DNA of 64,000 nt from Candidatus Latescibacterota bacterium (GTDB taxonomy: Bacteria > Latescibacterota > UBA2968 > UBA8231). The translations under genes were made by a program, and so were the position numbers. Every line of letters starts with the position of its first letter. The first letter of the stretch is position 1. This document shows, in pieces, positions 1 through 62,206 of the stretch. The notes below the pieces were generated by a model. It did no database searches and was not told the origin of the DNA. It saw only the letters and a program-made list of their open reading frames with translations. The stretch spans positions 576,001 through 640,000 of the forward strand of contig CBDCXV010000002.1 in the NCBI GenBank assembly GCA_965223905.1. Direction: 5' to 3'.

Positions 1-267
1 GAGGGGGTGCTGGCCGAAGGAGAGAAGGAAGTGCACTTCTCCGCCAGCCTGCACGGGACTGCGCCGATCGAGCGGGTGGAGATCATCGCCGGCGGGCAGT
101 GCGTCTGGCAGGACGCGCCCGATTCCTGGGACGTGGAGATCGCCGGGGCCGAGCTGCCGGCGCCGGAAGGGACGGGGTCCTGCTACTACCTGAGGCTGCG
201 GCAGAAGGACGGGCACCGGGCGTGGTTGAGCCCGGTGTGGCTCGACCGGGAGAACGGGGCGCGGTGA
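1..267 (+). CDS. C-terminal end of a DUF3604/CehA-McbA-like metallohydrolase-type protein (partial at window edge)
   Basis: Ends ...YYLRLRQKDGHRAWLSPVWL, the typical C-terminal strand motif of this group. Confidence 0.6.
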   Translation, partial: EGVLAEGEKEVHFSASLHGTAPIERVEIIAGGQCVWQDAPDSWDVEIAGAELPAPEGTGSCYYLRLRQKDGHRAWLSPVWLDRENGAR

Positions 268-458
268 ACGGCAGGAGCCGGGCCGGCATACAGCCAGGTG
301 TACGCGTTGCCATAGTGCAGAAGCAGGACCAGGGCACGGGCCGTCTGACCGAGGGGGTCGTGCGGGATATCCTCACCCGGTCGGCGTCGCATCCGCACGG
401 GATAAAGGTGCGCCTCGAGACCGGCGAAGTCGGCAGGGTCAGACAGGTGAGCCGGTAG
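264..458 (+). CDS. YwbE family (DUF2196) small protein
   Basis: GTGA overlap with upstream stop; VQKQDQGTGRLTEGVVRDILTRSASHPHGIKVRL is the family motif. Confidence 0.85.
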   Translation: MNGRSRAGIQPGVRVAIVQKQDQGTGRLTEGVVRDILTRSASHPHGIKVRLETGEVGRVRQVSR

Positions 459-545
459 AAACGGCCGCCTTGCAAAGGGCGGGATTTCGCGTCATGCAGC
501 GCCGGCCGAATTCACGCGGAATTGCGCCCGCAGGCACTGGCTCTC

Positions 546-2693
546 TTACGGCGCCGTCGAGAGCCGTTCCACCGTCTGGCCGCAGTCGATCAAGTCGGTG
601 CCCGTCATATCGAGGGTGCTGGTTTCATAAGCCTGCACACAACGGAACCCGTCCTCGATCGTGGCGCCGGACAGGTCGGCGTTTCCCGTTCTACCCACGC
701 GGATGCCATACCAGTTGGCATCGGAGGCTACGCCGGCTTCATCGGATGAACGAAAGGTGATGTTGCCGGCGCGAGCGTCGAGGGTGCCCTCGACGATGAG
801 CTCCGAACGGAGGTCGTCATTGCCGCCTCCGGTCTCATCCCCCGGGGCGAACGCCACGGTCGTTCCCGCAGACAGGGTCAATTTCACACCGGCAGGAATC
901 TTCACATCCCCGCTCAATGCGACGAGATCGTCCCAGGGTTCGAAGCGGAACAGCTTCCCCTCTCCCGGACCCAGGGATAGTGAAAAGGAAGGGGAAGGGC
1001 CGTTGCTGGTCGCTACCATCTCTTTGGTATGGAGATCCCTGACCAGGTAAGAATAGGCGGGGCCGTTCAATTCGGACGGATCCAGTTTGACGGTCACCGT
1101 CCGAGGCCTGGGAAAATAGGAGGGCTCGCAGCGGCGGTTGACGACCATCAGGTAACGCGTGCCATCCGCATGGGTAAAGGTGCCCAGGTGGTAGTCTGCC
1201 GGATCGGAGAGGCGCCGGACCAGGGATTCGGGAGCGTCGCCGCGGAAGACCGCGTCTGAAGTCAACTGCAACAGGGTATCGTCCAGTTCCTGCAGCATTT
1301 TGTTGAGGGCCTGCACTTCTCTCCATTTGGGGGTGATGCGGTAGTTTCCGTCTACCAGGCCCTGTATGTCGGCCCTGCCGTCGGCATTGGTATGGCTGGA
1401 ATACATGAAGTAGTAGATGCCCGTCACGCCGTGGGCGAGAACGAGATTGACCTGAACCCGGATTTCCTCCGGCGTCGGGTCGTGGAAGCGGTTGGGGATG
1501 CCAAATGCCTGGATAATCGCCCAAAGAGGTATGCCGGCACCCTTTGCCACCTCCCGTGCGCGTCCATACAAGGTGACGAATCTATCCAGGGAACTCTGCA
1601 GGCGGGTCGCATATCTTGCCTTACCGGGCCTCGGCAGGGAAGGCCCCAAAGTATAGAAATCAACCAGGAATTCCGAAGGGAAAACCGTGCCCACGAAATG
1701 CCGCATGAAATCCTTGCGGGTCTCGTGGAACGCCACCACCCCCGACTTGCCGGTCTGCGCCTTTATCAATTCGTTCACATAGGCGATGCTCTCGTCCTTT
1801 TCCGTCCACCGGGGCTCATCGTCCGCGTAGAAGCGCCAGGGTTGGTCGACCGATATGCCGTCATATGAGGCCAGGTCGTTCACGATATCGGCGTCATAGT
1901 ATCCGGAGAAGAGCCTGTAGCCGTATTGGTCGTGGGCCCTGATCCTGTCCACCCAGAGGTTCCCTGTCCCGCTCCAGTCGATCTGGTAGCGCACCCAGTC
2001 GCCGCTGCGAGGCACGGAATAGCGGATCAGGAAATCCTGGTAGGTATCGACGGCGCGAAACTCCAGTTTTCGCACATCCCGCGTGCGCAATACCGTGCCG
2101 TCGGAATGCCTGAGGATTCTGAGAGTGGCGATCGGGTCCGGGCCGCTGTTGTCGTCCGTCTTCAGGCGGAAGACATGTATCCCGTGGCGCGCCCTGTTTT
2201 CAACTACTTGCCCCCGGTCATTCAGTTTCTGTTCCCTGTAACGCAGGAAAATCCCGGAGCCCTCCGGGGGGGTGTCGAGAAGGAGGCCCGGGGTGTGATC
2301 TGCCGTATTCGCATGCCAGGCATCTCCGTCCTGCGTTCCGACAGGATGGGTGAACCTCCTGTTCTCCGCTTCCACGGTCTTGGTCCAATAGGTTCGGGTT
2401 CGGGTCCGCCAGGTTGGAGGCATATTCCAGTTGTACAACTGAACATTCAGTCCCCGCTGGTGCGCCAGGTCCAGGAAGACGCCATTGACCGACGCATCGT
2501 TTCTTCCTTCGAGAGCGGCGTGGATGGTGTTGAAGTTGGCATCGACTACCTGGTCGAGCCGCGCGGCAAACTGTGCCGATTGATTGTTGAACAGGCCCGG
2601 AAACCAGGCCCCGATGGGAAATTCCTGCGCAAGACCCAACCTGTGACAAAAGAAAACAAGGGCCGAAAAAAGCAGGATTTGATGGGCCTTCAC
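546..2693 (-). CDS. Secreted glycoside-hydrolase-like (TIM barrel) protein with C-terminal beta-helix-like module
   Basis: GTG at 2693 overlaps the upstream stop; signal peptide; FPIGAW, DEP and PTPEEIRVQVNLVLAHGVTGIYYF motifs; C-terminal GDVxIP..LTL..G..V.F...LIVEGTL...WYGI module. Confidence 0.65.
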   Translation of the reverse strand: MKAHQILLFSALVFFCHRLGLAQEFPIGAWFPGLFNNQSAQFAARLDQVVDANFNTIHAALEGRNDASVNGVFLDLAHQRGLNVQLYNWNMPPTWRTRTRTYWTKTVEAENRRFTHPVGTQDGDAWHANTADHTPGLLLDTPPEGSGIFLRYREQKLNDRGQVVENRARHGIHVFRLKTDDNSGPDPIATLRILRHSDGTVLRTRDVRKLEFRAVDTYQDFLIRYSVPRSGDWVRYQIDWSGTGNLWVDRIRAHDQYGYRLFSGYYDADIVNDLASYDGISVDQPWRFYADDEPRWTEKDESIAYVNELIKAQTGKSGVVAFHETRKDFMRHFVGTVFPSEFLVDFYTLGPSLPRPGKARYATRLQSSLDRFVTLYGRAREVAKGAGIPLWAIIQAFGIPNRFHDPTPEEIRVQVNLVLAHGVTGIYYFMYSSHTNADGRADIQGLVDGNYRITPKWREVQALNKMLQELDDTLLQLTSDAVFRGDAPESLVRRLSDPADYHLGTFTHADGTRYLMVVNRRCEPSYFPRPRTVTVKLDPSELNGPAYSYLVRDLHTKEMVATSNGPSPSFSLSLGPGEGKLFRFEPWDDLVALSGDVKIPAGVKLTLSAGTTVAFAPGDETGGGNDDLRSELIVEGTLDARAGNITFRSSDEAGVASDANWYGIRVGRTGNADLSGATIEDGFRCVQAYETSTLDMTGTDLIDCGQTVERLSTAP

Positions 2694-3463
2694 TCTAGTT
2701 CTCCATTTGCTTGATCGCTCTTGATGCTTCCCCATAGTCGGGGCTCGACAACAGTCGAGATGCGCACCTCCACGGGGCCCCATGGGACTTCGAAATAGGT
2801 ATCTCCGTCCGGGACGAAATCGTGCGAACCGTTTTTAGTGGTTTTGGCCGTCCACTTGAAGTTGAAATACCCTCTTTCTTCTTCTTCCAGAGTGTCTCCG
2901 GGACTGCCCAACGCCGACCAGGGGACAGCCCCTTCCAGCCATTGACCCGACAGCGCTACCTCCACTTCAGTCAGATCCTCGCCTTCGGTGACAACCCATT
3001 GATCTCCGACGAGACGGCGGTAAACCTCTTTGGTGAGCCCCCCATTCCGGCCGACGATTTCGATTCGATGATCCGGGAGAAACCCGACCCAGGGCGGCGT
3101 GGCCTCGCCAAGGGTCGAATCGGCCGACACGTCGAAGAACAGCTCCACCGAAGTCTGGGCCGAATCCTGAAAGGGATCCTCCAGAAACCTGAAAATGAAG
3201 GCGAACAGCTCCTCCGTTCCGTTCGCATCGTCCCGGCGGAAAGAACCGAGTCCATAGCCGTAGGTAATGATATCAATGCTGCTGTTGGTATCGGGGGTGA
3301 CATCGTAAAATTCATCCCCCTCCGCGGGACCGCCCCGTCCCCAATCTCCCCAGTCTCCGTCGACGACGAACTCCGAGGTATCCTGGGCATGGGCCGTATC
3401 GGTGCCATTTCCCGGCATGAGGGCGCAGACCGAACCGAAGAGCAGGTTCCATATCACGCGCAT
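2690..3463 (-). CDS. Secreted DOMON/CBM9-like protein with C-terminal WGxIK tail
   Basis: RBS GAAAGGA before ATG 3463; signal peptide; VDGDWGDW...LEGAVPWSALG; ends STVVEPRLWGSIK. Confidence 0.65.
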   Translation of the reverse strand: MRVIWNLLFGSVCALMPGNGTDTAHAQDTSEFVVDGDWGDWGRGGPAEGDEFYDVTPDTNSSIDIITYGYGLGSFRRDDANGTEELFAFIFRFLEDPFQDSAQTSVELFFDVSADSTLGEATPPWVGFLPDHRIEIVGRNGGLTKEVYRRLVGDQWVVTEGEDLTEVEVALSGQWLEGAVPWSALGSPGDTLEEEERGYFNFKWTAKTTKNGSHDFVPDGDTYFEVPWGPVEVRISTVVEPRLWGSIKSDQANGELE

Positions 3464-3614
3464 GGCAGGAGTCCTTTCAGTGAGAATGAGCTGTTGCGGC
3501 TCTGCATCCGGTTTCGGCCGTTTCAAGGCAGACCGAAAAGTACTGCGCACTATTGAGAAGGTTTCACGCTGTCCCGGCCTTCATACACCGGGGTCGGTCA
3601 AGACCGATGGAAAA

Positions 3615-5231
3615 CTACTTGAGATAGATCAGTCTCCGCGTCTGCTCCCCGCCGGGCCAGGTCAGGCGGGTGAAATAGATCCCCGCTGCGACCGCGGCCC
3701 CCCGCCGATCGCGCGCATCCCAGGAGACCCGGTACGCGCCCGCGGCCTGGGTCTCGTCAACCAGCGTATGTACCTGTTGCCCCAGGAGGTTGTAGATCTC
3801 CAGCCGCACCGGACCGGAGGCGGCCAGGCGGTAGGCGATGCGGGTGCCGGCGTTGAATGGGTTGGGCGTGTTGGGATGCAGCTCGCTGGCAACCAATCCT
3901 TCCGGCGCCGCGACCTTGGCCGCGGCCAGCGGTTCGACCGACACCACCTGCATGCCGCCACCCAGGGTCAGTTCCAGGAACTGGCGCTCGTCGCTGTTGA
4001 GAGGAATGCTGTGCCACTGGCCCACCACCTTTCCGGCGGCGGTGAGGGCGCGGGCCTCGTAGAAGCCGCTGACGCCGGGGAAGAGGGTCAGTTCCAGCCG
4101 CCCCGCCGTGTCGGTGACGGCCCTCCAGACGTAGTGGCGGCGGCGTCCGGCGATGGCCCGGGAAAACTCGACGGTCAGCCCCTCGACCATGCCGCCCAGG
4201 ACCGCGGCCTCCACTTTGGTGCGGGGCGCCAGATCCCACAGCACTACCGAGAAATGACTGCTCTCGCTCCCACTCCTGCTCCTGCTGCCGCTGGCCAGGG
4301 TGTTGCCATCCGGGGAGAACGCCACCGAAGAGACCCAGCTCTCATGTCCATCGAGGGCAAGGGTGGCCCTGAGCTGTCCGGTCTCCACGTCCCACAGCCG
4401 GATCGCGAGGTCGTGAGCGCTGGCCAGGGTATTGCCGTCCGGCGCGAACGCCAGGGACCATACCCATTCCGCAGGTCCCTCCGCCGTATATCCCTCCCAG
4501 GTAGTCTCCGGATCTCCGGTGCCTGCGTCCCAGAACCGGATCGTCCCGTCCCAGCTGCCGCTGGCCAGGGTCTTGCCGTCCGGCGAGAACGCAACCGCCT
4601 GGATCCAACCTGTATGCCCCTCCAGGGTATTCCTGAGCTGCCCGGTGCCCGCATCCCACAACCGGATCGTATAGTCCCCGCCGGCACTGGCCAGGGTTTT
4701 GCGGTCGGGAGAGAATGCAAGGGCCTCGACCTCCCCTGTATGTTCCTCCAGGGTATTCCTGAGCTGTCCGGTCCTGACCTCCCATAACCGGATGGCGTGG
4801 TCCCTGCCGCCGCTGGCCAGGGTCTTGCCGTCCGGGGAGAACGCCAGGGAACGGACGAAACCCGCAGGGCCGTCAAGGGTGGCCTTGAGCTTTCCCGTGC
4901 TGACCTTCCACAACCGGATTTCCCCACCACTTTCTCCGGCGAGGGTCCTGCTGCCGGGTGCGAACGCCACCGATCGGACGAACCCTGAACCAAGGCGGGC
5001 CTTGAGTCGGCCGGTCCGTGCACTGTAGAGCCAGATACCGATGGTGCTGGGCGCCGCCAGCCAGGCGCCATTGGGCGAATAGGCGATTTCACCGGTAAGT
5101 ACCGCTTCGCCAAAGCGTGCTCTGGTGCCATTGGGTAAAACCAGGCGGGAATGCTCCCTGGCGAGGCTGTCCTCCATGAACACGCAGGACAGCAACAGGA
5201 AGGTGAGATGGAACAACCGGGTCGTTTTCAT
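3615..5231 (-). CDS. Secreted WD40-repeat protein with C-terminal FlgD-Ig (T9SS-sorting-like) domain
   Basis: Signal peptide; about six LAFSPDGKTLASG..D..IRLW repeats; PNPFN...LEIYNLLGQ...WDARD..G..VAAGIY tail. Confidence 0.9.
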   Translation of the reverse strand: MKTTRLFHLTFLLLSCVFMEDSLAREHSRLVLPNGTRARFGEAVLTGEIAYSPNGAWLAAPSTIGIWLYSARTGRLKARLGSGFVRSVAFAPGSRTLAGESGGEIRLWKVSTGKLKATLDGPAGFVRSLAFSPDGKTLASGGRDHAIRLWEVRTGQLRNTLEEHTGEVEALAFSPDRKTLASAGGDYTIRLWDAGTGQLRNTLEGHTGWIQAVAFSPDGKTLASGSWDGTIRFWDAGTGDPETTWEGYTAEGPAEWVWSLAFAPDGNTLASAHDLAIRLWDVETGQLRATLALDGHESWVSSVAFSPDGNTLASGSRSRSGSESSHFSVVLWDLAPRTKVEAAVLGGMVEGLTVEFSRAIAGRRRHYVWRAVTDTAGRLELTLFPGVSGFYEARALTAAGKVVGQWHSIPLNSDERQFLELTLGGGMQVVSVEPLAAAKVAAPEGLVASELHPNTPNPFNAGTRIAYRLAASGPVRLEIYNLLGQQVHTLVDETQAAGAYRVSWDARDRRGAAVAAGIYFTRLTWPGGEQTRRLIYLK

Positions 5232-5567
5232 CCGAAGACGCTCAACATGCGAATGCTGTTTCAGGGGGACCTGGAGTTGACCCGGTTCCCTGGACACTCA
5301 ATTTCTCGAAAAAGTGGACGACTTCGATCATCTCCTGGCCCGGTCACGATCGCCGGGGACTTCAAGCGCCAGCTCGCCCGACTCGAAGCGTGTCGTAGTC
5401 GCTTAGGGCAGCCGCGGGAAGCGCGATCTGCAGGCGGGAGAGGTCCGTGGTTTTTCAGTCACTCCCAGCCGGCCCGAAGGCGGCCGATCTGTTGGTTTCC
5501 CTGTGTCGTTTCGGGGGTTGCTGAAAGCTACGCCATCCCTCCATCCGGTAAAAACCGAGGCCCTGAA

Positions 5568-5730
5568 ATGACCCCTCCCGTGCCCCTCAACTCCGGCGGG
5601 GCCGCCATCCAGACCACCAACCTCGCTGTCAGCAGCGACGGCATCCGCTTCGAGCAGCCGGAGCTGGGGTTGGTGGAGTTCAACGGCACGCGCAGGAACA
5701 ACGTCGAATCTCTCAGGGCTCCGGACAACT
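5568..5730 (+). pseudogene. Remnant of a beta-propeller glycosidase-like gene
   Basis: AVSSDGIRFEQPELGLVEFNGTRRNN motif with no surrounding full-length gene. Confidence 0.4.
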
Positions 5731-5788
5731 ACCGGGGAGCTGCCGCCACGAATCCTCCCCGCCGAAGAAGTGAGAAAGACAGGACGAA

Positions 5789-6760
5789 ATGCCTGATTTG
5801 CCGGCCATTCAGGTCGAGACCTTGACCACCGTCCGCAAGGACGACAACCACAACGCCTTCACCGACCTGTGTGTCTACTCGGGCAGGTACTACCTGACCT
5901 TCCGGAGCTGCCCCGACGGCCACCGGGTCTCGAGCTCCGCTTGGGTCGTCGTCCTCGAGAGCGGCGACGGCCGCAGTTGGTCGGAGGCGTTCACCTTTTC
6001 AGTCCCCGGTCGCGACACCCGCGACCCCCACTTCCTCGTCTTCGGGGGGTCGCTGTTCGTCTACACCGGCACCTGGCTGCTGCACGAGGCGGGCGTTCCC
6101 CTGAACCTCAACGAACATCTCGGGTACGCGGCCTGGACCGCGGACGGTTCCGAGTGGAACGGGCCGGCGCAACTGGAGGGGACGTACGGCCATTACGTCT
6201 GGAGGGCGGCTTCCCACGGCGACCGCGCCTTTCTGTGCGGGCGCAGGCGCCGCGGCTATGGGTCCGGCATTGAGGACGAGCAGCAACCCGAGTCGATCGA
6301 GTCGGCGATGCTCGAAAGCAGCGACGGCCTGGTGTGGTCCTTCCGCTCCCTCTTCGCCCGGGATTTCGGCGATGAAACCGCGTTCCTGTTCGAGGAGGAC
6401 GGCTCCGCCGTGGCCCTGGTTCGCGACGGCTCCGGAAAGCGGGTCCGCATCTGCCGGTCCGCGCCGCCCTGGAAGGCCTGGACGTCCGCATGCCTAGAGC
6501 GCAATGTCGGCGGCCCCCTGCTGGCGCGATGGGGGGGCCGCTACCTCGTGGGAGGACGCAAGAGCATGGGGGACACCGCGGCGACCTCGCTCTGGTGGCT
6601 GCACGGGGAGGCGTTGCACGAAGCCGCGGAGCTGCCGAGCGGCGGCGACAGCTCTTATCCCGGGTTCGTGGCGCTGAGCGAGGAGCGGGGACTGCTGTCC
6701 TACTACTCGACCCACGAAGGCAGCACCGCCGTCTACCTCGCGGAGCTGTCGTGGCGTTAG
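5789..6760 (+). CDS. BNR/Asp-box exo-alpha-sialidase-like protein
   Basis: HNAFTDL, SGDGRSW, RDP, SSDGLVW, LPSGGDSSYPG, SYYSTHEG. Confidence 0.8.
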   Translation: MPDLPAIQVETLTTVRKDDNHNAFTDLCVYSGRYYLTFRSCPDGHRVSSSAWVVVLESGDGRSWSEAFTFSVPGRDTRDPHFLVFGGSLFVYTGTWLLHEAGVPLNLNEHLGYAAWTADGSEWNGPAQLEGTYGHYVWRAASHGDRAFLCGRRRRGYGSGIEDEQQPESIESAMLESSDGLVWSFRSLFARDFGDETAFLFEEDGSAVALVRDGSGKRVRICRSAPPWKAWTSACLERNVGGPLLARWGGRYLVGGRKSMGDTAATSLWWLHGEALHEAAELPSGGDSSYPGFVALSEERGLLSYYSTHEGSTAVYLAELSWR

Positions 6761-25504: not shown

Positions 25505-26416
25505 ATGAACCGCCGCATTTTTGCGCTCGTCCTGCTGTTGACCTGGCCCGCTGGCGGCCACGAACTGAATAACACGGTCTATCCGGCGTTTCAGTGGCCG
25601 TGGGGTGCAGATGAAATTCTGGTCGACGGCGTCATCGACGATTTGGCCATTGTTCCTTTGTTCGAATTTGGCCATTGGATTTCGTCTACGGAGCTTCGAA
25701 ATGAAGAAGGGGAAGCCCCCGACCCCAATTCTCTGTATTCCGAAATTCTCGTCCTCTGGGACGACTACACCAACAGGATATATCTGCTGGAATTTCGGTA
25801 TGACGACCATGTGTATCAGTCCAGCGACCTAGATGGCGACATCTTCCTCCTCAAGGCAGGTTTGAACCCCGAGGGTAGCGCGACCCAAGCCCATTTCATG
25901 GGCGTGAGACCGGACTCGATTTATTTGGCTCCGCTTCGAAATACCTGGCACGACGAGCCTCCCTATGTAGAAAAGGCTTTCTCGTCCATCGACAAAATGT
26001 GGCCTGGTACATTCCCGGAAGCGACGGTGTACGAGGATTGGCTGTACATCGAATCGAGCTGGACCCTGTGGGAAGAATTGGTCTATGGGGAGTCTGGCGA
26101 AGTGCAATCGGCGGTGGAGTTCGACCTGGAAGAAGGCCAGATCATCGGTCTCGCATGGGAGTATTGGGATCTCGACCGCTCGAAAGGCCCGGGCCCCGAA
26201 GTCTGGTACAGCGTCGACCATAGGCCCGGATTGACTCGCTTCGAAAATTGGGCCCTGTCCGCTTTTCTGCTGGAACCCGAGACCCCTGGGTTCTATGGTT
26301 GGGTTTACGGATTCCAGGATCCACCTAGCCTACCCGAAGACGACGGATCCGAGGATGATTCCGCGGTTGTTGCCCGCAGCTGGGGATCCCTCAAGGACCT
26401 GTTTCGGAATCGTTGA
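25505..26416 (+). CDS. Secreted CBM9/DOMON-like protein with C-terminal WGxLK tail
   Basis: RBS AAGGAG; signal peptide; ILVDG..DD; DLEEGQIIGL; ends SAVVARSWGSLKDLFR. Confidence 0.75.
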   Translation: MNRRIFALVLLLTWPAGGHELNNTVYPAFQWPWGADEILVDGVIDDLAIVPLFEFGHWISSTELRNEEGEAPDPNSLYSEILVLWDDYTNRIYLLEFRYDDHVYQSSDLDGDIFLLKAGLNPEGSATQAHFMGVRPDSIYLAPLRNTWHDEPPYVEKAFSSIDKMWPGTFPEATVYEDWLYIESSWTLWEELVYGESGEVQSAVEFDLEEGQIIGLAWEYWDLDRSKGPGPEVWYSVDHRPGLTRFENWALSAFLLEPETPGFYGWVYGFQDPPSLPEDDGSEDDSAVVARSWGSLKDLFRNR

Positions 26417-55631: not shown

Positions 55632-55933
55632 ATGACCACTCTACCTGATCACCCCGCCCCGCCGCCGAGCCCCGGCCGCGCGGGCAGCGCATCGGCCTGT
55701 GGCTCGGACCCCTGCTGTTCGCCCTCACCCTGCTGCTCGACCTCGAGCCCGGCAGGCCGGAGATCACGCGCATGGCCGCGGTGGCCCTGCTCATGGCCAC
55801 CTGGTGGATCACCGCCCCACGGCTTCCGGACCACCGGACTGGCCCGTTTCATCGGCGACGGTTTCAACGGGCTCGGCTCGGTGCCGCCACTCCTCCTCAT
55901 CCTCGGCATCTGCCTGACGATCACCTTCCTCAC
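55632..55933 (+). pseudogene. Internally deleted copy of the SLC13/DASS transporter gene at 58488
   Basis: DNA matches ~58545-58673 joined directly to ~59603-59722. Confidence 0.9.
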
Positions 55934-56024: not shown

Positions 56025-58232
56025 ATGAAACTGTCGGGGATAGGCACCTTGAAGAAGCTACCAAAGTGGTGGGTTGGGTCCTTGGCAGCAGTTCTCGGCC
56101 TTGCTCTGGCATCGGTCTCTTTCGCCCATCAGCCCGAAGGGGTCGTGTACCCGGTTTTTCAATGGCCTGAAGGGCAGGAGCCAGTTATCGATGGCGACCT
56201 ATGGGAATGGGATATGATCCCGGACGAGTACCGCATCTCGTCCTCCATTTGTCGAAGTTTCAACGGAGACTCCCCGGAGGCTTACGGGCTGGAATCCGAG
56301 ATCATCGTCAGTTGGAGCGAGTCCCAGAACAAGATCTACATCCTGGAAGTCCGGCAGGACGATGATTTCATCCTCGGGGACCCGGACACCTATGGCGACG
56401 CCATCGACATACAACTGGACGGCGATCACGGGGGCGAACTCATTTACTTCAGTCAAGATGAATACCCGGATGATGAAGAGCGAAGTCTCAACAAGGGCCG
56501 CCGGGCGCAATCCTACGTTCAGTTTCTTCCGGGCAGCACTCGGGGTCCGGAGGATACTTGGGCCTGGTTCTGGGTCAGCGAGTCTACCTGGTATGACCAG
56601 CCGGAATACATGGACATGGCCTATGTATTCGAAGGCCAACTGAGGGGGGAGGGCCTGCTGGTGACCGAGTCCAGTTGGACCTTGTGGGACGATTTTATCT
56701 GGAACGACCCGGACGCCTCCGTCCAAACCGATCTCGAAGAGGGCCACATCATCGGCCTGGGATGGATATACCATGATTTTAATGATGAGGGTGATAGGTC
56801 CGTGTTTTATTGCAGCGGGCCCGAGGCAGAGGATCAGTATAGAACTTCGGCCTCGATTTCGGACTTTCTTCTGGAACCGGCCTACCATTGGCCTGACTAC
56901 TCCATCCTCCTCCCCGACCCACCCCCCTGTCCTTGCCAGGAGGTGGACGACGATTCGGTTGTCATATGGGAATCTTGGAGGCGCTTCAAGGGGCCTTCAG
57001 ATGGAGTCAATTTCCTGTCGTTTTCACCGGATGGGCGCACCCTGGCCAGTAGCAGTTGGGACCGAACAGTTCGGCTTTGGGATGTCGACACGGGTACACC
57101 CCAGGCCACCCTGGAAGGCCATGGGGGTACGGTCTTAGAGGTGGCGTTTTCGCCGGATGGGGGCACCCTTGCCAGTGGGAGTATGGACGGCACGATTCGG
57201 CTGTGGAATGTGAGAACGGGCCAACTCGACACCAGCCTTTCAATTGATCCTGGGAGGGGTGTCTGGTCCGTGGCGTTTTCGCCGGATGGCGAAACGCTGG
57301 CCAGTGGAGGTAACGATGGCGAGGTTCATCTGTGGGATGTGGGAACGGGCCAACAAGTGACCAGCATTGGACATTCCATTTATTGCGGTTCCCTGGCGTT
57401 TTCGCCGGATGGCGAATCGCTGGCCTGTGGGGTATCATTCGGCGGGCTTAACCTTTTTGAAGTTGGGCCGGGGACACTGGGGTGGCCAAGCGCCTCGAAA
57501 GTGACTATTTCGCCGGATGGCGGTGCACCGAAGAGGACGGAGTTGCCGCCACAACCCTCCGGGGTCGGTACCGTTGCCTTTACTCCGGATGGCAGCAAGT
57601 TGGCCTGGGGGCTGCCCTTTGGCGGGACGACTCGGTTGTGGGATCTGGACAGGGACCAGGAGAGCACTCTTCGGGACAGGGGTTATGTGGCCTTCTCGCC
57701 GGATGGCCAAACCCTGGCGATTGCTGATGACTGGAACTCGGACACGATAATTCGCTTGTGGGATGCGGAAACCGGTCAACACAAGGCCACCCTGAAGGGG
57801 CCCCTGAATGATAGGACCCATTCGATAGCGTTTTCACCGGACGGGACTCTAGCCAGTGCGGGTAAAGGTGGCATCCTTTTGTGGGACATGTCGCCATTCA
57901 TAACGGATCATTCTGAAATAACGGTTGTATCTGCCGTGGGACCCGCGGTGCCTGTCGTCAGCGGCCTGGATGCGATTGCGCCCAATCCCTTCAACACCAC
58001 CACTCGGATTTCCTACCGCATGGCCACCCCCGGCCAGGTGCGTCTGGAGATCTACAATACCCTCGGCCAGCGGGTGCGCACGCTGGTAGACGAAGCCCGA
58101 CCCGCCGGCTCCTACCAGGTTCTCTGGGACGCCCGCGACCAGGAGGGCGCCGTAGTTTCGGCCGGGGTTTACCTCGCTCGCCTTCACTATCGCGACGGTG
58201 CGGAGACGCGGCGGCTGCTCTACCTCAAGTAG
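56025..58232 (+). CDS. Secreted CBM9/DOMON-like + WD40 + FlgD-Ig protein
   Basis: RBS AAGGAGG; N-domain paralogous to 25505; FSPDG repeats; PNPFN tail. Confidence 0.9.
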   Translation: MKLSGIGTLKKLPKWWVGSLAAVLGLALASVSFAHQPEGVVYPVFQWPEGQEPVIDGDLWEWDMIPDEYRISSSICRSFNGDSPEAYGLESEIIVSWSESQNKIYILEVRQDDDFILGDPDTYGDAIDIQLDGDHGGELIYFSQDEYPDDEERSLNKGRRAQSYVQFLPGSTRGPEDTWAWFWVSESTWYDQPEYMDMAYVFEGQLRGEGLLVTESSWTLWDDFIWNDPDASVQTDLEEGHIIGLGWIYHDFNDEGDRSVFYCSGPEAEDQYRTSASISDFLLEPAYHWPDYSILLPDPPPCPCQEVDDDSVVIWESWRRFKGPSDGVNFLSFSPDGRTLASSSWDRTVRLWDVDTGTPQATLEGHGGTVLEVAFSPDGGTLASGSMDGTIRLWNVRTGQLDTSLSIDPGRGVWSVAFSPDGETLASGGNDGEVHLWDVGTGQQVTSIGHSIYCGSLAFSPDGESLACGVSFGGLNLFEVGPGTLGWPSASKVTISPDGGAPKRTELPPQPSGVGTVAFTPDGSKLAWGLPFGGTTRLWDLDRDQESTLRDRGYVAFSPDGQTLAIADDWNSDTIIRLWDAETGQHKATLKGPLNDRTHSIAFSPDGTLASAGKGGILLWDMSPFITDHSEITVVSAVGPAVPVVSGLDAIAPNPFNTTTRISYRMATPGQVRLEIYNTLGQRVRTLVDEARPAGSYQVLWDARDQEGAVVSAGVYLARLHYRDGAETRRLLYLK

Positions 58233-58487
58233 CCATTCCGGTGAGGTGGTGCACCTGATGGATAACCGATCGCACCCCAGAGGCCTCACTTGCCATTTTG
58301 CAGCAGCGTTCTTGAGTCCTTGGCCTACAGGGAGCCAGCCACGGTCAGCCGGACCCCGGGGGGATATACTGGACTGAGGAGAGAGACCTCGGCTGGATTC
58401 AGCGATCCGACCTTGACTCGAGGTGAAGCCGAACCGGATCGCATTGGAACCGATCCTGGGAAAAGATCTACTTCAGGCGGCGGCCCC

Positions 58488-60047
58488 ATGACCGGAACTC
58501 ACGACCCTGCCACCCCGCCCTCCGGCGAAACCCGGTCGCGCGGCCAGCGCATCGGCCTGTGGCTCGGCCCGCTGCTGTTCGCGCTCACCCTGCTGCTCGA
58601 CCTCGAGCCCGGCAGGCCGGAGATCACGCGCATGGCTGCGGTGGCCCTGCTCATGGCCGCCTGGTGGATCACCGACGCCTTTCCGCTCTTCGCGACCGCG
58701 CTGCTGCCTCTGCTCCTGTACCCCCTTCTCGGTATCGAGCAGACCCGGGCCACGGCCCCGATCTACTTCAACAGCACCATCGTCCTTTTCCTCGGCGGGT
58801 TCATGATCGCCCTGACCATGGAGAAGTGGGACGTCCACCGCCGCATCGCCCTGTGGGTCATCCGCTCGGTAGGCGGAGGACCGGCGCGGATCGTGCTGGG
58901 GTTCATGCTCGCCGCGGCCTTCCTGTCGATGTGGATCTCGAACACGGCCACGGCGATCATGATGATTCCGGTCGGCCTCGCGGTGATCCTGAGAATGGAG
59001 GAGCAGTTCGGGCGGGAGCGGACGCGCGCCTTCTCCGTGGCCGTCATGCTCGGGATCGCCTACGCCTGTTCCGCCGGGGGCATCGCCACCCTGGTGGGCA
59101 CGCCCCCGAACCTCTCCCTGGAGCGGATCTTCCAGATCACCTTTCCGGAGGCGCCGCACCTATCGTTCGGGGTGTGGTTCGTTATGGCCGCGCCCATCTC
59201 CGTGCTCATGCTCGCCTCCGCCTGGCTGCTGATCACGCAGGTCTTCTTCCGCATACCGGCCGAGGTCGCCGTCGACCGGGAGGTCCTCGAGTCGGAGGCC
59301 CGAAAGCTCGGCCCCGTCTCCTTCGAGGAGCGGGTAATCCTCGCGGTGTTCGCCGCCACCGCCCTGCTCTGGGTCTTCCGCGCGCCGATCGAGATCGGAG
59401 GGCTGACGATTCCCGGCTGGTCCGCCCTCCTGCCGTACGGCAACCTCATCGACGACGGCACCGTGGCGATCGCCATGGCCAGTCTCCTCTTCCTGGTGCC
59501 GGCCCGGTCTCCCGGGGCGAAGTCGCGGATGGTGATGGGGCCCGACGTGGTGCGCGGGCTGCCCTGGAACATCGTGCTGCTCTTCGGGGGAGGCTTCGCC
59601 CTCGCCCACGGCTTTCAGACCACCGGACTCGCCCGTTTCATCGGCGACGGCTTCAGCGGCCTCGGTTCGGTGCCGCCTTTGGTCCTCATCCTCGTCATCT
59701 GCCTGACGATCACCTTCCTCACGGAGCTCACCTCGAACACGGCAACCACCGAGATGGTGCTCCCCATCTTCGCGGCCGTCGCCGTGTCCGCCGGCGTTCA
59801 CCCGCTGCTGCTGATGATCCCGGCGACGCTGTCCGCCTCGTGCGCCTTCATGATGCCGGTGGCCACGCCCCCCAATGCCGTGGTCTTCGGCAGCGACCGC
59901 GTCAAGGTCTCGGAGATGGCGCGGGTCGGCATCTTCCTCAATTTTGTCGGCGCCGTCGTCATCACCCTGGTTTTCCGCGCCATGGGCCCGCTCCTGTTCG
60001 GCATCGAGCCCGGGGTGCTGCCGGAGTGGGCAGGGGCGGGAGGCTGA
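58488..60047 (+). CDS. SLC13/DASS family sodium-coupled anion symporter
   Basis: LSMWISNTAT, GTPPN, LTELTSNTAT, FMMPVATPPNA. Confidence 0.95.
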   Translation: MTGTHDPATPPSGETRSRGQRIGLWLGPLLFALTLLLDLEPGRPEITRMAAVALLMAAWWITDAFPLFATALLPLLLYPLLGIEQTRATAPIYFNSTIVLFLGGFMIALTMEKWDVHRRIALWVIRSVGGGPARIVLGFMLAAAFLSMWISNTATAIMMIPVGLAVILRMEEQFGRERTRAFSVAVMLGIAYACSAGGIATLVGTPPNLSLERIFQITFPEAPHLSFGVWFVMAAPISVLMLASAWLLITQVFFRIPAEVAVDREVLESEARKLGPVSFEERVILAVFAATALLWVFRAPIEIGGLTIPGWSALLPYGNLIDDGTVAIAMASLLFLVPARSPGAKSRMVMGPDVVRGLPWNIVLLFGGGFALAHGFQTTGLARFIGDGFSGLGSVPPLVLILVICLTITFLTELTSNTATTEMVLPIFAAVAVSAGVHPLLLMIPATLSASCAFMMPVATPPNAVVFGSDRVKVSEMARVGIFLNFVGAVVITLVFRAMGPLLFGIEPGVLPEWAGAGG

Positions 60048-61567: not shown

Positions 61568-62206
61568 ATGCGCCGGATCCTGTCATCACTCGTGTTCCTC
61601 TGCCTTCTCGTCCTACCCCTCTCCGCCCAGGAGGAAGCCCTCCACGGCACCTGGGAGGGGAGCTTCGTGGACGAGGAAGGCAACGCGATCACCATGCGCC
61701 TGTCCTTTGAGGAGGATGGCGCCTTCGAGCTCAACCAGGTCGTCGAGCTGGGAGAAGACTTCCAGTCCGTTGTCGGAGCCACGGAAATACCCGTGGAGGA
61801 GATCACCGCCCAGGGCATCGGCACCTACGAGGTCGACGGCGACAAGCTCTCCGTCGATATCACCGAGGTGGAAATGCTCGTCGGCGACCGGGACTTCTTC
61901 GAGGTCCTCGCCGAGGTCGCCCGCGCCCTGGCCCGTTTTGCCGCGGACTTTGCCGGAGTCTCCGAAGAGGACTACCCGGCCTTCGAGCAGAACTTCGTCG
62001 ACGAGTTCCTCGCCGGAATGGACGAGGACGAGTTCCTTGCCGGATTCGAGGAGGAGGTCACCTACGCCATCGAGGGTGACACCCTGTTCATCACGTCTCC
62101 CACGGAGGACGGGGGAGAAGAAACCTCGGAATACCAGCGCGTCGACGTCGGCACTGCCGTGGCCGGGACGACCTGGGGCGGTCTGAAAGCGAATTGGCGT
62201 CCGTGA
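61568..62206 (+). CDS. Acidic secreted protein with C-terminal WGxLK tail
   Basis: RBS AGGAGG; signal peptide; LHGTW; ends TAVAGTTWGGLKANWRP. Confidence 0.8.
   Translation: MRRILSSLVFLCLLVLPLSAQEEALHGTWEGSFVDEEGNAITMRLSFEEDGAFELNQVVELGEDFQSVVGATEIPVEEITAQGIGTYEVDGDKLSVDITEVEMLVGDRDFFEVLAEVARALARFAADFAGVSEEDYPAFEQNFVDEFLAGMDEDEFLAGFEEEVTYAIEGDTLFITSPTEDGGEETSEYQRVDVGTAVAGTTWGGLKANWRP

Follow-up and report, generated by a model that had tools for sequence, protein, structure and literature searches.

A stretch of 64,000 nucleotides (the window; contig positions 576001-640000 of a 7.92-Mb Latescibacterota-like assembly with 64% G+C) contains, at 56025..58232, a gene for a protein of 735 amino acids (aa) in which a CBM9-like domain is followed by a seven-bladed WD40 propeller and a C-terminal sorting domain (CTD) of type A of the secretion system called type IX (T9SS). 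Between the CBM9-like domain and the propeller lies a short segment that resembles the WG tail, a C-terminal motif with the consensus D-[TS]-A-V-E-x-x-[ST]-W-[GA]-R-[IV]-K-A-S-[LF] among the tailed open reading frames (ORFs) of this genome; an unfused paralog in the same window (25505..26416, hereafter 25505) ends in such a tail. The segment is very probably the relic of a tail that was internalised when two genes were fused. From the N-terminus, the order of the parts is signal peptide, CBM9-like domain, Pro/Cys linker, tail relic, propeller and CTD, and the features of the two genes are as follows (pLDDT, predicted local distance difference test).

56025..58232, + strand: fused gene, 735 aa (ORF; Pfam and NCBIfam matches; AlphaFold model, mean pLDDT 83.9)
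56025..56126, + strand: signal peptide region, aa 1-34 (hydrophobic helix at aa 14-28 in the model; aligns with the N-terminal hydrophobic stretches of paralogs)
56127..56894, + strand: CBM9-like beta-sandwich domain, aa ~35-290 (paralogy with 25505, BLASTP E 1e-24; no Pfam match)
56895..56948, + strand: Pro/Cys-rich linker, predicted to be disordered, aa 291-308 (pLDDT <50 over aa 291-309)
56949..56999, + strand: probable internalised WG-tail relic, DDSVVIWESWRRFKGPS, aa 309-325 (best tail-matrix window of the protein; core W-R-R-F-K against W-G-R-I-K)
57000..57899, + strand: seven-bladed WD40 propeller, aa ~326-625, structurally also aa 311-325 (PF00400, 152.7 bits; alignments to solved propellers at Z 37-39)
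57975..58229, + strand: T9SS type A CTD, FlgD-Ig-like, aa 651-735 (TIGR04183; PF13860)
25505..26416, + strand: unfused paralog 25505, 303 aa, with signal peptide, CBM9-like domain and terminal WG tail (model mean pLDDT 74.5)
26354..26413, + strand: terminal WG tail of 25505, DDSAVVARSWGSLKDLFRNR (last 33 residues at pLDDT 48-59, unpacked against the domain)

Cleavage of the signal peptide of the fused protein would be expected near SFA/HQ. Positions 56900-57010 encode aa 293-329 (SILLPDPPPCPCQEVDDDSVVIWESWRRFKGPSDGVN), within which the relic segment at aa 309-322 reads DDSVVIWESWRRFK. C-terminal to it, WD40 repeats (PF00400) and FlgD_ig (PF13860, 40 bits against a cut-off of 27, aa 670-721) were matched, and TIGR04183 recognised aa 651-731 (28.9 bits, cut-off 23), which places the terminal domain among the T9SS type A CTDs; PF18962 was absent among the best 25 Pfam matches listed for this protein. 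The CTD, whose end falls at aa 731-735 of 735, thus occupies the extreme C-terminus, and the protein has a signal peptide.

The earlier note on this DNA had claimed that the N-terminal domain is paralogous to 25505, and that at the point where 25505 ends the larger protein has an internal segment and runs on into WD40 repeats and FlgD-Ig. Both claims hold. The BLASTP alignment (91.3 bits, E 1e-24, 98/331 identities or 30%) covers aa 24-322 of the long and aa 8-297 of the short protein, includes all four blocks named in the note (VYP.FQWP, ESSWTLW, DLEEG.IIGL.W and FLLEP), and continues in register through '...DDSVVIWESWRRFK' in the one and '...DDSAVVARSWGSLK' in the other. The segment is preceded by the same Asp-rich linker as the tail of 25505.

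Two neighbouring genes read as one through an error of assembly or gene calling are scarcely conceivable here. The ORF is a single open frame without a stop across the junction, the AlphaFold fold is continuous across it, and the same junction occurs on contigs of three other assemblies (P0002, P0004 and L020) as well as in a diverged paralog of this genome (C10:264699-267140); in favour of such an error can be said only that the locus is prone to rearrangement, with duplicated transporter pieces upstream and a relative's copy cut by insertion sequence elements.

As to the surroundings, pieces of a Na/sulfate symporter gene (58290..60047, PF00939) were found duplicated and joined at 55653-55933, just upstream of the fused gene, with 92% and 90% identity to 58513-58674 and 59605-59722, respectively. 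Because of this duplication, the fused gene stands between broken and intact transporter copies, which suggests a duplicative rearrangement at the locus. In the related Latescibacterota metagenome-assembled genome (MAG) that carries L020, the syntenic ortholog (243-6147) is wrecked: transposase-like ORFs replace its 5' part, another (3602..5236) splits the propeller, and the same transporter and acetyltransferase genes lie downstream.

The genome encodes 21 CBM9-like paralogs (E < 1e-6), comprising 15 with a WG tail, one with a variant of it (SLGAIK), two WD40 and CTD fusions (the window gene and C10:264699-267140), two PKD fusions and one without a tail. A profile search over 1.84 billion representatives gave 2,661 relatives at E <= 1e-3. 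In a set of 152 database proteins (150 listed of the 2,661 matches, plus P0001 and P0004 from a separate search), the WG tail is terminal in 112, lies 27 residues from the end in one and is lacking in 39, and all of the CTD-ended and PKD-ended relatives fall among these 39. The family profile matched the CBM9 structure 1i82 (E 2.1e-5), and in a Foldseek search the model of 25505 matched 1i82_A (E 5.4e-7, TMt 0.68) and 7nwn (E 6.1e-7, TMt 0.69). The likeness to these CBM9 modules lies in the fold and in weak profile similarity; sequence identity is 11-12%. Since 25505 matched none of the Pfam families at E up to 0.1, the domain is CBM9-like rather than a member of CBM9, and sugar binding is putative.

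In two paralogs, C10:2008226-2009305 (+) and C11:1482110-1483180 (-), a PKD domain replaces the tail, as it does in many database relatives. In the alignment to the family profile, PKD-fused members extend across the tail columns, and the tail was therefore considered as a copy of the first PKD strand. This idea was rejected: the PKD-fused segments score -4.2 to -19.1 in the tail matrix described below (control median -17.7), which is not significant.

Internal segment: likeness to the tail and direction of the fusion

For scoring, a matrix of 17 ungapped columns was built from the 92 ORFs outside the CBM9-like family that terminate in the same WG tail. Over all 735 aa of the protein, the highest score, 2.4 bits, falls on aa 309-325. 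Two orthologs from other assemblies also have their best window there, P0002 (DDSVVIWQSWKSIKAAS, 14.2 bits) and P0004 (DDSVVIGTSWRRIDEPS, 3.3 bits), whereas the diverged C10 paralog (DDSVPDLEFRARFDSVS) scores -16.5 bits. Among 5,567,422 internal windows from all ORFs of the genome, 1,098 score at least 0, 327 at least 3 and eight at least 12 bits. Fifteen paralog tails can be aligned with the segment in register, and the column of W318 is at least 90% conserved with the tail Trp of the CBM9-like family. The preface D-[ST]-[AV]-[VI], which in tails closes the passenger domain five to seven residues ahead of [ST]-W, is present as D310-S311-V312-V313...S317-W318; the core W-[GA]-x-[ILVM]-K reads W-R-R-F-K, and K322 lies 413 residues from the C-terminus instead of near it. 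A search by hmmsearch with a 17-column tail HMM did not report the segment. The likeness of the segment to the tail exceeds chance.

The loss is concentrated in one half of the motif. The first half of the matrix (columns -9..0) is kept in three of the four fused copies (+9.9 in the window gene, +8.8 and +15.6), but not in the C10 paralog (-5.1), which has lost the preface (SVPD). The second half is lost except in P0002 (+5.3): it scores -7.4 in the window gene (there columns +1..+7, while the real-tail median of 21.1 refers to columns 0..+6), -12.3 and -11.4. A fifth fused copy, L020, in which the gene is cut by transposase ORFs, reads ...SWRRIGE... at this place. The Gly of the core is replaced in all five fused homologs (R, K, R, R, A), and the Lys is retained in two of the five. 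All 36 pairs of the nine closest unfused relatives have an identical WGRIK core, at domain identities of 28-91%, whereas the three fused genes compared share 2/5, 2/5 and 0/5 core residues at domain identities of 90, 54 and 52%. In windows of 11 aa, comparison with the 90%-identical P0002 gives 91% identity over aa 305-318 and 18% over aa 319-329 (5.8th percentile).

The earlier note had called the internal tag decayed, and in one respect this is correct, because real tails score at least 4.3 bits, with a median of 35.0, and the relic 2.4, and the identity of the core is gone. In another respect the word is too strong, since the first half has been kept and the relic has probably been re-used.

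Several points weigh against simple decay of an internalised tail. The first half of the relic is 91-100% identical among orthologs in 11-aa windows, and such conservation is not neutral decay. The second half lies in the lower tail of the window identities without being the most variable stretch of the protein, and against P0004 the lowest window has 36% identity (14.6th percentile). The fused sequences number only three to five, one of them (L020) a broken gene. The unfused set was partly picked by a regular expression that fixes W, [GA], [ILVM] and K (four of the nine relatives), so that its conservation is inflated; five fetched unfused loci, chosen by domain similarity alone, are free of this bias.

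All five of these loci, the nearest unfused relatives from the same genus or family, end in the canonical ...TAVEE[DQ]SWGRIK... The N-domain was used as a query against 30 related genomes. In both same-genus genomes the best matches are unfused ORFs (312 and 356 aa); by this query, the fused gene is intact in its own genome only (two copies), is broken in one of the two other same-genus genomes, and was not found in the second, which is 96% complete. The fused architecture was also recognised in two database proteins from other assemblies.

An IQ-TREE analysis of the domain alone (49 rows, tail columns removed, unrooted) places the fused clade of three rows within otherwise tailed sets at four starred levels (99/93, 100/97, 98/90 and 97/96), and 25505 in the group that is sister to it. 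The nesting of the fused genes was also obtained with FastTree on 163 rows, 126 of which carry the tail; the CTD label changes eight times on that tree, at least six of these changes being forced by starred branches. Because the fused genes nest in tailed clades and their nearest unfused relatives end in ...SWGRIK..., the analysis supports a derived fusion and the segment as an internalised tail, and the earlier note's proposal that a gene with a WG tail was fused to a WD40-FlgD gene agrees with these data. The opposite course, in which the fused form is ancestral and the tailed proteins of ~300 aa arose by truncation, draws on the fact that the trees are unrooted and that counts of changes alone cannot tell gain from loss. 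It is very improbable: the fused clade lies four starred levels deep among tailed rows, the tail occurs on 126/163 family rows and also on 92 ORFs outside the family, and the N-domain query found fused genes only in the genomes just named, besides the two database proteins.

A donor for the other half of the fusion has not been recovered, which also counts against the fusion of two genes as proposed. No unfused WD40-CTD donor was found in our searches, and among the 21 paralogs and the loci L045-L049 no tailed CBM9-like gene was found directly before a WD40-CTD gene; a 267-aa WD40 ORF lies 429 nt downstream of one distant CBM9-like paralog. One candidate for an unfused WD40-CTD ortholog, P0265 (421 aa, 70% identical), was rejected: it starts inside the first blade and lacks a signal peptide, and is therefore probably a partial gene call. 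Other WD40-CTD matches with full coverage begin with a different N-terminus (signal peptide and QEYTRWSLPEEAKARLGEGS).

The segment in the modelled propeller

The earlier note had allowed that its reading would fail if the segment were part of the first WD40 blade. By sequence the segment is not a WD repeat. In a matrix made from 144 internal repeats of the genome's own WD40-CTD proteins, W318..P324 scores -6.2 bits (true repeats: median +13.4, 5th percentile -4.3), the other fused genes score -7.3 to -11 at the same segment, and the matrix turns positive from aa 325. By the modelled structure the answer is less sharp, since aa 311-322 are placed within the propeller, as its N-terminal closing strands. 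AlphaFold predicts disorder over aa 291-309, strands at 312-314 and 319-322 (pLDDT 71-82) and then the first blade, and solved seven-bladed propellers align (VIA-align) from model residue 308-316 to 621-625, for example 5yzv_D (Z 39.4, rmsd 1.6, 276 residues), and residues 29/31-334 of WDR5 align with 308/310-624 at Z about 37. The homologous tail residues are predicted to be flexible in unfused 25505 (pLDDT 48-59) and to form strands in the fused protein. Because AlphaFold models the relic as closing strands of the propeller, it has probably been re-used as N-terminal closing (velcro) strands rather than having simply decayed; this reading is drawn from the secondary structure, confidence values and alignment ranges of the model.

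In WDR5, an N-terminal strand completes the last blade of the propeller. Model residues 308/310-324 align with WDR5 29/31-44, that is, with this strand; the difference here is that, judged by sequence, the closing strand would be the former sorting tail of another protein and not a segment of a WD repeat.

The same structural data bear on the possibility that the segment has no tail ancestry at all and is the N-terminal closing strand of the WD40 donor itself, its likeness to the tail being due to chance. Besides the solved propellers that align from residues 308-316 and the two predicted strands, Pfam propeller envelopes begin at aa 309-328 (those of several families at aa 309-321), and F-K-G-P stands in the register of L-k-G-H. 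We consider this origin unlikely. The segment is in register with 15 paralog tails behind the same Asp-rich linker as in 25505, is the best tail-matrix window in each of three orthologs, and scores under the 5th percentile of true repeats in the WD matrix; the unfused WD40-CTD relatives start otherwise, with a signal peptide and QEYTRWSLPEEAKARLGEGS; and ortholog P0002 reads SWKSIKAAS, which is tail-like and without G-H. A weaker form of the idea concerns only the residues after W318. Since R-R-F-K-G-P stands in the register of 'x-x-L-k-G-H' of a WD repeat and the model has a strand there, these residues may derive from the WD40 donor, and the change described in the earlier note as 'WG to WR' may be a junction and not a substitution. 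This too goes against decay of a complete internal tail.

The conserved first half admits yet another explanation, namely that the relic is a partly working internal site of recognition or processing, at which a cut would free the CBM9-like module from the propeller and CTD. The D-S-V-V...S-W half, with its 91-100% conservation among orthologs, corresponds to the [ST]-A-V hinge found in front of both tags, at which the paralogs L051 and L052 swap them (see below); the disordered linker of aa 291-309 lies just upstream; and, according to PMC11969387, T9SS cargo is cut in a flexible linker before the CTD. Such a site is nevertheless unlikely, as the relic residues are modelled as ordered propeller strands and not as an exposed linker, the C10 paralog has no preface (SVPD, -5.1 over columns -9..0), and high identity over 14 residues, between orthologs that are 90% identical throughout, is weak evidence for function.

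The best explanation, which we hold to be very probable, is thus that a tail-ended CBM9-like gene was fused to a WD40-CTD gene, and that the tag was internalised, lost its core and had its strands re-used. The ancestor would have been an exported protein of ~300 aa, with a CBM9-like domain and a terminal [ST]-A-V-E-x-x-[ST]-W-[GA]-R-[IV]-K-A-x-x-x-COOH. Its stop codon would have been lost and the gene joined, by a mechanism that we can only infer, to a WD40 propeller carrying a T9SS type A CTD. The fusion protein would then be addressed by the terminal CTD, and the old tail, ~410 residues from the end, would no longer be read as a tag, which would release the diagnostic Gly and Lys from constraint. 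The first half and the strand-forming character would have been kept because, according to the model, the segment serves as closing strands of the propeller.

WG tail and CTD in the genome

In the 7.92-Mb genome, 113 ORFs end in W[GA]x[ILVM]K with the common preface, and the Lys lies 0-7 residues from the C-terminus in 88 of them. When all genome ORFs of at least 80 aa were scanned, 83 of 88 strict matches to the motif lay at most 25 aa from the ORF end, which fits the earlier note's suggestion that the tail works only at the C-terminus. The passengers are unrelated to one another (CBM9-like, LVIVD propeller, WD40 and lipocalin-like), and an N-terminal hydrophobic run was recognised by a crude test in 59/113 tailed ORFs, compared with 62/500 control ORFs. 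Besides 25505, the window contains a further example:

61568..62206, + strand: WG-tailed ORF, 212 aa, end ...TAVAGTTWGGLKANWRP, with an unrelated lipocalin-like passenger

These features suggest that the WG tail would be a sorting or anchoring signal, and the positions of the motif suggest that it would require a free C-terminus. None of the NCBIfam sorting-signal models matched five WG-tailed proteins at E up to 1, and no account of the tail was found in the open-access literature searched.

In this genome, each of the two tags excludes the other. No ORF carries both when 111 WG and 87 CTD passengers are compared, and a WG motif within 60 aa upstream of PNPFN occurs in 0/92 CTD ORFs. At the same time, 28 of the 111 WG passengers have a CTD-tailed homolog, 14 of these outside the CBM9-like family. 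The clearest pair is L051 (C10:57647-58804, +) and L052 (C2:649882-651549, -). These LVIVD beta-propeller paralogs share 69.6% identity over 352 aa and run together as far as 'T[SE]TAV', after which one has KPASWGRVKTLFRDRN-stop and the other a full CTD. The preface [ST][AV][VI] is found 10-30 aa before PNPFN in 28/84 CTD ORFs, compared with 2-5/84 in four control windows, and the WG tail and the CTD therefore share a hinge. A reciprocal case is L050 (C1:770612-771970, -; 452 aa), in which a signal peptide and a CarboxypepD_reg-like piece are followed by an internal domain still recognised by TIGR04183 (30 bits, aa 129-205); another ~245 aa separate this domain from a WG tail at the end.

Other CTD-ended representatives of the CBM9-like family give no comparable picture. 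Eight of them score -10 to -17 in the tail matrix and have no relic, and in the ninth, P0073, a single window reaches +2.0 bits; it lies 42 residues beyond the end of the domain, and we take it for chance. The lineage of the fused gene is therefore the one switch in the family with a visible relic.

Outside this genome the exclusion is less strict. In the Poribacteria loci fetched, 13 ORFs end in the WG tail, and one of 19 CTD ORFs has a WG motif just before the CTD: in L021, an 888-aa ORF of a Poribacteria MAG, TTWGKIK lies five residues before the FQNYPNPFN of the CTD. The earlier note had also proposed that the two tags are ALTERNATIVES. For the present genome this stands, on the 0/92 CTD ORFs and the swapped pair with 70% identity; because of the tandem in Poribacteria, 'alternatives' is not universal.

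Core genes of the machinery that would read a CTD are present in the genome. SprA_N was matched at 98 bits, PorV at 47 and 33 bits, and Peptidase_C25 at 258.7 and 255.8 bits, all above the cut-offs, and PorV lies directly downstream of one of the two PorU-like C25 genes (the search covered SprA, PorV and C25/PorU-like genes). PorV was found in 27 of the 31 genomes searched. It is credible that the terminal CTD would be the operative signal of the fused protein. A complex prediction with the PorV candidate (aa 24-350) and a 40-residue WG-tail peptide (aa 296-335) gave 0.00 and 0.00 against a mark of 0.32, and is uninformative both ways.

Three further loci were observed. In the window, a WD40 and CTD ORF (3615-5297, -; 560 aa) has a WG-tailed ORF of 286 aa (2690-3550, -) directly downstream, so that in this neighbouring pair (2690-5297) the order is opposite to that of the fusion. 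In the CTD-ended ORF C5:43128-45632 (+; 834 aa), EGQADEGTSWARIPDVT at aa 696-712 scores 11.7 bits, ~33 residues before an 'ATAV' preface, and is perhaps another internalised tail. The highest-scoring internal tail-like window of the genome, VDYAIRMDPWGRSKADF (21.5 bits), is at aa 185-201 of C11:936407-937237 (+), 75 residues before the end of the 276-aa ORF, and could reflect read-through, a frameshift or a chance match.

The definition of a short C-terminal address tag usually rests on nothing but its being shared; here, the same tag on the same domain has been moved away from the end of the protein. Gly and Lys, invariant in the terminal copies, have drifted beside a domain that is still 90% identical, and this comparison speaks for a tag that is read at a free C-terminus. 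Exclusion, the 'TAV' hinge and the swapped pair together indicate that the WG tail and the T9SS CTD are interchangeable modules in this genome, and the re-use of the relic suggests how an element resembling a signal peptide, once discarded, can find new use as a structural strand in a domain attached later. Predictions that can be tested also follow for a sorting signal of uncultured sponge-associated phyla, one described in none of the libraries and papers searched.

Relation to known sorting systems

The T9SS type A CTD (TIGR04183/PF18962, FlgD_ig-like) and the WG tail are alike in that both stand at the C-terminus of diverse passengers exported by the Sec pathway. They differ in that the CTD is a folded domain of ~70-90 aa, whereas the WG tail has ~17-20 residues and is predicted to be flexible, and no T9SS model of NCBIfam matched the tail in the five tailed proteins. 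According to PMC11285876 and PMC11969387, RgpB is no longer exported when two residues are removed from its end, and for HBP35 the final 22 residues are enough. PMC11969387 also places the cleavage sites of T9SS cargo in the flexible linker before the CTD, and reports short CTDs in Prevotella intermedia with 40-55 aa, three strands and a conserved basic residue in the last strand (motif E). These short CTDs show that T9SS signals can be greatly reduced in length and still retain the basic residue of the last strand; in this genome, Lys at -6 from the end is commonest in WG tails (38/113), and 79/92 CTDs have Lys or Arg at -6. The short CTDs retain motifs B and D and a three-stranded sheet, however, and the WG tail has neither.

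Because published T9SS signals need the extreme C-terminus and can be much shortened, it is a fair hypothesis that the WG tail is a 'minimal CTD-like signal'. The fuller proposal, that it is an uncatalogued minimal sorting signal which needs a free C-terminus, uses the same envelope machinery as the T9SS CTD by mimicking its last strand, including the basic residue at -6, and is swapped with the CTD by recombination at the 'TAV' hinge, is put forward tentatively, and we think it rather less probable than its failure in one part or another. If it were true, Latescibacterota, Poribacteria and related uncultured phyla would have a second, minimal class of signal in addition to the folded CTD, and the fused gene would be a natural internalisation experiment. 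No paper joining Latescibacteria and type IX secretion was found in the open-access literature searched, and the text of PMC12993501, on sponge Latescibacterota, contains none of the terms 'T9SS', 'secretion system' and 'C-terminal'.

The WG tail shares with the tripartite signals the property of being a short conserved C-terminal motif on many exported passengers within a lineage. In those signals (LPXTG/sortase, PEP-CTERM/exosortase and MYXO-CTERM), a membrane helix comes after the motif, and then a basic cluster; the WG tail, by contrast, stops 3-7 residues after its Lys, without a hydrophobic helix.

The closest parallel to the exchange of tags is offered by the 'choice-of-anchor' families of TIGRFAMs/NCBIfam, a name given to homologous passengers with different C-terminal sorting signals, just as homologous passengers here carry either the WG tail or the CTD. 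The best NCBIfam match of L051 and L052 is in fact TIGR04312 (choice-of-anchor B), but at 78.1 and 61.9 bits, below the cut-off of 100, it amounts to no more than a likeness. The anchors catalogued for these families do not include the WG tail. In short, it is known in principle that homologous passengers can bear different C-terminal anchors, and what is new is the tag itself, together with a visible, internalised and half-decayed copy of it.

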